From positions 1-50,468 of the forward strand of contig CAZBQH010000415.1 in assembly GCA_964493915.1 (NCBI GenBank): 50,468 bases of DNA. Direction: 5' to 3'. Source of the DNA: an uncultured Nitrospiraceae bacterium (lineage in GTDB: Bacteria; Hydrogenedentota; Hydrogenedentia; Hydrogenedentales; SLHB01). This document shows, in pieces, positions 34,562 to 34,877 of the stretch. Position 1 is the first letter of the stretch, and each line of letters begins with the position of its first letter. Below the pieces are notes generated by a model. It searched no databases. It worked only from the letters and a program-made list of their open reading frames with translations, and was not told the DNA's origin. Both the position numbers and the translations under genes were made by a program.

Positions 34562-34606
34562 AAAAAAAACATAAGGAGATGCCCGGCACGAAGACCGGGC
34601 ATCTCC
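34562..34606 (-). terminator. Rho-independent terminator, minus strand
   Basis: Perfect 12-bp stem GGAGATGCCCGG / CCGGGCATCTCC followed on the minus strand by TTATGTTTTTTTT. Confidence 0.85.
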
Positions 34607-34643
34607 AACTCGTTCCAGCTAATAGTCGCCGTCGCTTATTCAG

Positions 34644-34757
34644 CTAACCGACAACGCCTCCTTGACCTATCATACCCGACAGATCCATCTTCTGGAAACG
34701 AAATACGGCGCTGCAAGCGACGCTGCTACTAGCGCCGGGTCTACCCGGACTTTCCAT
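34644..34757 (-). CDS. Putative 37-aa small protein (MESPGRPGASSSVACSAVFRFQKMDLSGMIGQGGVVG) behind an extended SD; the RNA may matter more than the peptide
   Basis: AGAAAGGAGGTGGTCCA 4 nt before ATG 34757. Bracketed by its own promoter and terminator. Confidence 0.5.
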   Translation of the reverse strand: MESPGRPGASSSVACSAVFRFQKMDLSGMIGQGGVVG

Positions 34758-34848
34758 ACGATGGACCACCTCCTTTCTGCCTCACCCGATGTATCCCGCG
34801 GGCGCCCCATTGAGCCGCATCGCCATCAGCAAGGACTTTCTTAACTAA

Positions 34849-34877
34849 ACGATAACAGGAACAGCAGGAAATGGCAA
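34849..34877 (-). promoter_or_regulatory. sigma70 promoter of the 34562-34840 small transcript
   Basis: Minus strand TTGCCA, 17 nt ending in TGT, TATCGT. Confidence 0.65.

Follow-up and report, generated by a model that had tools for sequence, protein, structure and literature searches.

The window analyzed here is a stretch of 50,468 nucleotides (nt) corresponding to contig CAZBQH010000415.1 of assembly GCA_964493915.1, which is recorded as an uncultured Nitrospiraceae bacterium and placed by GTDB in the Hydrogenedentota. Its minus strand harbors, at positions 34562–34877, a small gene whose RNA carries a 17-nt complement of the 3′ tail of 16S ribosomal RNA (rRNA), followed directly by a short open reading frame (ORF). 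The genome (G000) comprises 5.58 Mb in 613 contigs and is 94.5% complete. All elements of the gene are located on the minus strand within a 565-base-pair (bp) gap between two plus-strand genes (33753–34478 and 35044–36177). The promoter, the terminator, the 17-nt motif, and the 37-codon ORF were each found at the positions given in a preliminary description of this DNA, which had been made from the letters alone. The elements of the gene and the helices (P) of its RNA are as follows:

34877–34849, minus strand: promoter of the sigma-70 type, TTGCCA-17-TATCGT with an extended TG, found by consensus scan
34562–34841, minus strand: predicted transcript of ∼280 nt, with predicted ends
34780–34834, minus strand: 5′ domain P1, an outer stem around a hairpin, with the conserved internal loop GCGAA/GGGAUAC (RNAalifold)
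34778–34762, minus strand: 17-nt complement of the 16S rRNA 3′ tail, AGAAAGGAGGTGGTCCA in the window, pairing with the tail AGAAAGGAGGUGGUCCA
34760–34767, minus strand: 5′ strand of P2, GGUCCAUC, overlapping the 3′ end of the tract and directly preceding the AUG (RNAalifold and column scan)
34757–34644, minus strand: short ORF of 37 codons, with AUG at 34757–34755 and stop UAG at 34646–34644, from reading of the ORF
34735–34748, minus strand: P3 hairpin CCGGG-UAGA-CCCGG within the ORF, 89.8% paired, with two pairs changed on both sides
34726–34733, minus strand: 5′ strand of P5, GCUAGUAG, pairing with 34618–34625
34682–34689, minus strand: 3′ strand of P2, GAUGGAUC, resembling the 16S tail and lying ∼75 nt downstream (column scan and pair counts)
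34664–34685, minus strand: P7, an alternative hairpin of GAUCU (34685–34681) with AGGUC (34668–34664), from the family alignment
34657–34661, minus strand: internal Shine–Dalgarno (SD)-like GGAGG, 10 nt before the stop (sequence and family count)
34627–34656, minus strand: P8 hairpin with the stop UAG (34646–34644) in its loop, read from the sequence
34618–34625, minus strand: 3′ strand of P5, CUAUUAGC (column scan and pair counts)
34562–34606, minus strand: intrinsic terminator, a 13-bp GC-rich stem (34606–34575) and a U tract, the stem covarying strongly across the family

The 5′ end of the transcript was placed from the −10 box and the onset of conservation, and the 3′ end from the terminator. 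The predicted RNA, taken as 281 nt, showed a minimum free energy (MFE) of −121.7 kcal/mol, with a z-score of −4.3 against dinucleotide shuffles. A TTGnnn-N16–18-TAnnnT site ending 61–80 nt upstream of GGAGG was present in 48 of 64 family sequences. The transcript also contains a promoter-like sequence, TTTCCA-18-TATGAT (34669–34698, minus strand), which is probably a chance match; across the region, three promoter-like sites were found against a shuffle expectation of 1.0 ± 1.0, a modest excess.

Evidence for expression was sought in metatranscriptomes. Assembled contigs of 137–206 nt from four runs of four studies mapped only to positions 34615–34828, with ∼90–95% identity; all of these lie inside the predicted transcript, and none extends to the flanking genes. 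Seven RNA runs contained only ∼4% of the sampled words of the stretch, and contigs from four of these were aligned; parts of the stretch that are free of RNA contigs prove nothing by themselves. The contigs hint at a discrete RNA of fair abundance that stems from close relatives. Two DNA runs, X1 and X2, contain the stretch and are possibly the source sample. The feature is a real, well-delimited, free-standing gene, and the self-contained small transcript proposed in the preliminary description is supported by the conserved promoter, the terminator, and the confinement of the RNA-library contigs to the unit.

A blastn search with the minus strand gave matches in 24 of 40 relatives (25 of 41 genomes including G000), the conserved core extending from the predicted 5′ end to slightly beyond the start codon. 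G000 itself has one copy of the gene. A covariance model of the 5′ 120 nt, built on 26 sequences, matched in 69 of the 133 genomes of the order and 69 of the 135 genomes of the phylum Hydrogenedentota, with one copy per matching genome except for one metagenome-assembled genome (MAG) in which two contigs carry the RNA. The two copies in this MAG (G022) are near-identical and lie on the short contigs C581 (L004) and C318 (L026), which could represent strain heterogeneity in the bin or a true duplication. The model found the RNA in none of the 23 genomes of taxonomic family f11 and none of the 10 genomes of f13, and none turned up in a plain motif search of five genomes from families f5, f11, f12, and f13, of which two are closed. 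No gene neighborhood was found to be conserved beyond the genus level, the largest neighbor family being present at 8 of the 70 loci.

The 16S tail of the organism itself could not be read, and the tail was therefore taken from relatives. Six 16S gene copies from five relatives of the same order end in ...GGCTGGATCACCTCCTTTCT, and three of these five genomes carry the RNA; the tail that had been assumed in the preliminary description is thus right for the group. With this tail, the 17 contiguous pairs with a single G-U pair were borne out, the duplex in the window being predicted at −29.4 kcal/mol, and the tract proved to be the longest anti-16S match in the 5.58-Mb genome, beyond what chance would give. 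Among 70 sequences from 69 genomes, the contiguous pairing (G-U pairs included) spans 17 nt in 67 and 16 nt in three, while only four have a tract that is fully Watson–Crick. Eight of the nine tract positions that face U or G in the 16S rRNA vary among the 70 sequences, always by a transition that keeps the pair; none of the eight positions that face C or A, at which a transition would break the pair, varies. The rare core variants (GGGAAGG, GAAGGGAGG, and GGGGG) are all changes of A to G. Wobble-only variation of this kind speaks for contact of the full 17 nt with the 16S tail; it is the mark left by selection to pair with an unchanging partner that has the sequence of that tail. An all-against-all column scan revealed no internal partner for the GAAAGGAGG part of the tract. 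The preliminary description had made its reading depend on conservation of the extended pairing, and such conservation was found across the family. It had also named the 3′ end of precursor 16S rRNA as a possible target; nothing points that way.

Ordinary SD sequences had been taken in the same description to pair over 4–9 nt. The length of the tract is less exceptional in this organism, as 22 further sites with 13–16 contiguous anti-16S pairs were found in G000, several of them before ordinary-looking small ORFs; it is the phylum-wide conservation that is special. Examples are GAAAGGAGGTGATCCG (16 pairs) before an ORF of 44 amino acids, GGAAAGGAGGTGA before a Cys-rich ORF of 44 amino acids, and AGAAGGGAGGTGA before an ORF of 54 amino acids, on contigs C308 (minus strand, ∼3.1 kb from the reverse-complement end), C254, and C542. 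Extended SD sequences may be general for small genes of the organism.

The structure of the RNA was evaluated with RNAalifold and a column scan, which gave five helices (P1, P2, P3, P5, and the terminator stem), the helices being counted formally on 41 long-form sequences. For the structure as a whole, all five measures were reached by none of 500 shuffles, and 84% of the cells were paired, as against 32–42% with the partners slid. In the consensus fold, the first 10–11 nt of the tract are unpaired, GAAAGGAGGU being the free part, and the 3′ part of the tract is masked in P2 by a strand that resembles the 16S tail. P2 was paired in 98.2% of the cells, with three compensatory pairs, for example GAUCUAUC/GAUAGAUC in sequences L013 and L014. 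P5 (CUAGUAG/CUACUAG) was 80.5% paired, with seven of its eight pairs changed on both sides; it crosses P2, and formation of both helices would yield a pseudoknot. The GGAUC in the 3′ strand of P2 can alternatively pair with a downstream GGAUC-like element to form P7, which makes P2 and P7 mutually exclusive. In the family alignment, P7 was 82.7% paired, with four of seven pairs changed on both sides.

In the 5′ domain, the outer stem of P1 was 76.5% paired (7 of 11 pairs changed on both sides) and its inner hairpin 91.9% (five of six). GCGAA opposite GGGAUAC is kept in the P1 internal loop of most sequences, and this loop could hold tandem sheared G-A pairs, forming a kink-turn-like protein-binding motif. 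In L021, the arms of P3 are swapped (CCCGG/CCGGG). The columns of P8 were 67–72% paired in a MAFFT alignment. By local folding, the stop codon lies in a stem-enclosed loop with at least two of its three nt unpaired in 47 of 69 sequences; the window is outside these 47, its local MFE fold leaving one of the three unpaired. For the variable middle region, which comprises P6 and the P7 interior, RNAalifold on MAFFT sub-blocks yielded next to nothing. The role of the 3′ half of the tract as a strand of the conserved helix P2 was missing from the preliminary description. The hairpin CCGGG-UAGA-CCCGG that it singled out is real and conserved, but its true position is 34748–34735 and not 34617–34645; the latter is a distinct stretch that comprises the loop and 3′ arm of P8 and the 3′ strand of P5.

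An ORF of 23–44 codons opens from the homologous start in all 69 complete family sequences. Two size classes were observed, of 36–44 and 23–35 codons, an entire inserted domain accounting for the difference. ATG is the start codon in every sequence seen except L018, which has GTG, and the start is located 4 nt past the motif end ...TCC/TCT in 58 of 64 sequences, 5 nt in five, and 3 nt in one. Each of the other two frames contains a stop in 59 of 63 sequences. The frame is kept through many insertions and deletions, which argues that translation matters. The ratio of non-synonymous to synonymous differences (pN/pS) was ∼0.63 and differences at the three codon positions stood at 160:169:213, as counted in 38 close pairs, largely from one genus. 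The recurrent PGxPG residues coincide with the arms of the P3 hairpin. A Pfam scan of four peptides gave nothing at curated cut-offs; one peptide showed sub-threshold matches to GATA (E 0.034) and DUF7835 (E 0.13). In the comparison of peptide with RNA conservation suggested earlier, the frame and the RNA structure are kept and the peptide appears barely conserved. The earlier idea of a ribosome-protected messenger RNA (mRNA) for a small peptide fits the ORF kept open, whereas the peptide, which looks poorly conserved, is probably not the main point.

The end of the ORF holds a second SD-like element. An SD-like 4-mer occurs within the final 24 nt of the ORF in 58 of 69 sequences, compared with 4 of 69 in a control window, and its distance to the stop is 9–13 nt in 52 of those 58. 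At that distance, the anti-SD could pair again while the stop codon occupies the A site. The stop codons of the family ORFs are TAG in 46, TAA in 16, and TGA in seven of 69 sequences, as against 34%, 21%, and 46% in the long ORFs of the genome. The preference for TAG might reflect termination specific to release factor 1 or shared ancestry.

Conservation, structure, pairing compatibility, preservation of the frame, and the position of the second SD are shown by the analysis. On this basis, the gene is probably a stand-alone, structured, ribosome-docking small mRNA of the "rre" type. The unpaired GAAAGGAGGU would provide a toehold at which the 16S tail of a free 30S subunit binds, and the pairing would spread into P2, with ∼−29 kcal/mol predicted for the full duplex against ∼−10 kcal/mol for P2. 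The displaced strand resembling the 16S tail, GAUGGAUC, would be freed to re-pair through GGAUC with the downstream partner in P7, and the AUG would then be positioned 4–5 nt past the duplex. The ribosome would translate the short frame, its amino-acid sequence being irrelevant, and at the stop codon the anti-SD would re-pair with the internal SD at near-optimal spacing. By these steps, the folding, stability, and any downstream activity of the RNA would follow the supply of ribosomes whose anti-SD is free.

The rre RNAs are the small mRNAs rreB of Bradyrhizobiaceae and rreR of Rhodobacterales (Hahn et al., RNA Biol 2016/17; PMC5711450), and a literature search found no other paper on the class. 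According to that paper, rreB is an autonomous 165-nt mRNA that has a 14-codon ORF and, as a perfect complement of the 16S 3′ end, a tract of 17 nt. It is weakly translated and sediments together with 30S; substitution of a stop codon for its start codon stabilizes it, and growth was not slowed by its over-expression (PMC5711450). For its tract, a single-stranded 5′ seed with the rest in a hairpin was inferred by Hahn et al. The ORF of rreR has 18 codons, an ATG start is noted for the Azospirillum rre, and both RNAs were reported only from Alphaproteobacteria, with the function left open (PMC5711450). The RNA described here shares with them the stand-alone small transcript with its own promoter and terminator, and the complementarity of 16–17 nt to the whole free 16S 3′ tail, the hallmark of the class being at least 16 nt. 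Similarly, the 5′ part of the tract is single-stranded with the remainder in a conserved helix, a short ORF follows directly, and the genomic context is unconserved beyond the taxonomic family.

In contrast to rre, the present RNA belongs to Hydrogenedentota and is ∼280 nt long instead of 165 nt. Its AUG follows the tract by 4–5 nt, whereas rre has a GUG with its first base in the tract, and its ORF has 23–44 codons compared with 14 or 18. The peptide appears poorly conserved, while RreB and RreR were reported to be well conserved; the strand that pairs with the tract in the helix is found ∼75 nt downstream and can pair elsewhere as well, and a large pseudoknotted core and a second SD 9–13 nt before the stop are further differences from the published description (PMC5711450). 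By this comparison with the description of rreB, the RNA is in its design a clear variant of the rre class outside the Alphaproteobacteria. The rre class anticipates the hallmark, and the RNA is therefore not categorically new. The preliminary description, which considered either capture of 30S subunits or an mRNA, lacked the rre precedent; the nearest described RNAs, rreB and rreR, are small mRNAs that co-sediment with 30S (PMC5711450).

Several points weigh against such a ribosome-docking mRNA. Binding of 30S, strand invasion with the switch from P2 to P7, translation, and the physiological output are steps that we infer, and P7 is weak in the window itself (−3.8 kcal/mol). No 16S gene was found to be assembled in the 613 contigs searched of its own genome. 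Tract positions 13–17 are also explained by helix P2 together with a three-way constraint of the GGAUCC type, and they give no independent proof of 16S pairing. The count of open frames is partly definitional, the real support being the narrow length range and the shared stop position. The metatranscriptome contigs are assemblies that carry no strand or end information, and DNA carry-over is possible. The sequences are related, so that all family counts overstate independence. The RNA is absent from about half of the phylum, including two closed genomes, and is therefore not essential. Finally, a very strong SD may simply serve translation of the small ORF, given the 13–16-pair SD sequences elsewhere in the genome.

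This last point leads to an ordinary small-protein gene, in which the 37-residue peptide would be the product, the long SD would aid initiation, and the structure would provide stability only. Such a gene would account for the frame kept in 69 of 69 sequences, the recurrence of the N-terminus MxSPGxPGAS in the long form, and the slight third-position excess with pN/pS below 1; moreover, the other 13–16-nt SD sequences of G000 precede ORFs of 44–54 amino acids that resemble real proteins, and the RreB and RreR peptides are reported as conserved within their clades (PMC5711450). However, the peptide diverges even within a genus and ranges over 23–44 residues with a whole domain present or absent, and its conserved N-terminal residues coincide with P3, whose arms covary. 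The highest nucleotide conservation lies upstream of the start (blastn query positions 60–181, with the AUG at 144), and in sister families a conserved GAGGUGG is read in different frames. The peptide is rich in R, G, S, A, and C, no motif, hydrophobic or otherwise, stands out in it, and no Pfam family reached its cut-off. Taken together, a gene whose purpose is the peptide appears unlikely. A cis-acting leader-peptide attenuator, in which the ORF, the alternative helices, and the terminator would control read-through into a downstream gene, has a similar architecture (SD, short ORF, the exclusive helices P2 and P7, and an intrinsic terminator). The next gene downstream, however, is convergent (33753–34478, plus strand) and encodes a lipoprotein-type signal peptide, the downstream gene families are common to at most 7–8 of 70 loci and stay within a genus, and the alternative helices do not overlap the terminator stem, all of which renders attenuation hardly credible.

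It was also considered that the RNA could be a non-coding sponge, titrating an SD-binding protein such as CsrA with its GGA-rich SD-like elements, the ORF being incidental. CsrA is encoded in 104 of the 135 genomes of the phylum, and five GGA sites are conserved (GGGAUAC, AAAGGAGG, AUGGA, GAUGGAUC, and AAGGAGG). Yet the ∼280 nt contain seven GGA triplets against about five by chance, a rough hand estimate made without shuffles, and a CsrA site of ∼5–7 nt cannot explain a wobble-only tract of 17 nt or a preserved frame. In family f11, CsrA is almost wholly missing (1 of 23 genomes), although nearly all other members of the phylum have it, and the RNA is missing as well (0 of 23), but this co-absence concerns a single clade and therefore counts as one event; family f13 has CsrA in 8 of 10 genomes and the RNA in none of 10, and the genome G007, which is 100% complete, has the RNA and no CsrA match. 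Sponges of the CsrB/Rsm type are recognized by many GGA motifs, most of them in hairpin loops, and by co-occurrence with CsrA; here, GGA is near chance and the co-occurrence imperfect, and a sponge is very improbable.

With respect to known RNAs, an Rfam scan, proposed in the preliminary description, gave no match for the whole window at gathering score. On the region alone, with E up to 10, seven matches were obtained, all far below gathering (best E 0.087). Identity as transfer-messenger RNA, RNase P RNA, or 6S RNA was ruled out, the true RNAs of G000 being located on contigs C72, C450, and C509, respectively. A likeness of GGAAAGUCCGGG to the CR-I region of RNase P RNA was rejected, as those bases vary across the family.

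Other systems share parts of the design of a ribosome-docking mRNA. The STAB-SD of the cry genes of Bacillus thuringiensis belongs to a long 5′ untranslated region, at a great distance upstream of a large gene, and lacks its own start codon. There, as proposed here, a full complement of the 16S 3′ end of the GAAAGGAGG type holds 30S for a purpose beyond efficient initiation; the present tract differs in that a conserved start and ORF come after it and that its RNA is small and autonomous. Leader-peptide attenuators (trp, his) likewise combine an intrinsic terminator and exclusive helices with a short translated ORF, the peptide of which is of no importance, whereas the present gene has no conserved downstream gene and its alternative helices spare the terminator. 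The dual-function small RNAs SgrS/SgrT, SR1/SR1P, and RNAIII/hld pair with mRNAs through a seed and encode conserved peptides. The present RNA resembles them as a structured small RNA with a short ORF, but no conserved single-stranded seed was seen in it besides the SD tract. 6S RNA, which mimics an open promoter for RNA polymerase, is a conceptual analogue in that a stable small RNA imitates the nucleic acid that a core machine naturally binds, which in the present case would be a super-mRNA start site for the ribosome; it is a separate RNA, the true 6S being encoded elsewhere in G000.

A pattern scan over one genome per species gave 67 loci, ∼50 of them in Hydrogenedentota. Thirteen other loci were found in MAGs labeled Binatia (six), Rokuibacteriota, "bacterium," Pirellulales (two), Planctomycetaceae, BRC1, and Eisenbacteria, and all 13 look-alikes have GAAAGGAGGTGGTC[C/T]-N4-ATG followed by an ORF of 10–13 codons. 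Terminators were present within ∼300 nt at the look-alikes viewed in Rokuibacteriota, Pirellulales, BRC1, and Eisenbacteria; none was seen in the 260 nt examined at the Binatia-type look-alikes. In the class of one Binatia genome, the exact pattern occurred in 31 of 201 genomes, and 23 of 30 loci examined were mini-ORF RNAs; in the order of the Pirellulales genome, the figures were 20 of 201 genomes and 15 of 20 loci. All mini-ORF RNAs in the Binatia and Pirellulales samples have GAGGUGG 8–12 nt before a stop that lies in a hairpin, the GAGGUGG being read as CEVV in one group and as QRWL in another, and the reading in different frames indicates a signal at the RNA level and not in the peptide. 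In the RNAs of the Binatia and Pirellulales types, the 5′ domain again contains the motifs GGCGA/GGCUAA and GGGAU. No Rfam match was obtained for eight loci from other phyla.

A metagenome scan for the canonical rre hallmark, a perfect complement ending in GTG, identified at least 120 stretches. Of 80 such loci examined, 77 have ORFs of 12–31 codons, and some (MTYSPTVICEVV..) are clearly family members of the Binatia-type ATG forms. Only 34 of the 77 show an SD-like 4-mer ahead of the stop, and this feature is therefore not universal in the class. A wider idea is that the RNA of the window, the alphaproteobacterial rre, and the look-alikes from five or more further phylum-level groups form one widespread ribosome-docking class, in which a toehold SD would invade a decoy helix and a mini-ORF with a "start SD" and a "stop SD" would hold or gauge ribosomes with a free anti-SD. 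Such a class would be a global sensor or regulator of ribosome availability, a counterpart of 6S RNA; this generalization is speculative and rather doubtful. The mechanism is constrained by the wobble-only variation of the tract, the decoy helix with an alternative partner, the frame kept without the peptide, and the SD before the stop. Pirellulales is an order with cultured members. If a cultured carrier were found in it, the role of rre would become testable at the bench outside the one alphaproteobacterial model. The rre design, described once, in 2016, from Alphaproteobacteria only (PMC5711450), is now seen in about half of the sampled Hydrogenedentota genomes.

RNAs of the Hydrogenedentota type were also observed at loci under other names. 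Sequence L119, titled Candidatus Bathyarchaeia, carries such an RNA and has the same peptide as L008, and further loci (for example, L105, L106, L112, and L148) are titled uncultured Nitrospirales/Nitrospiraceae. These record labels look wrong, or the contigs look mis-binned.

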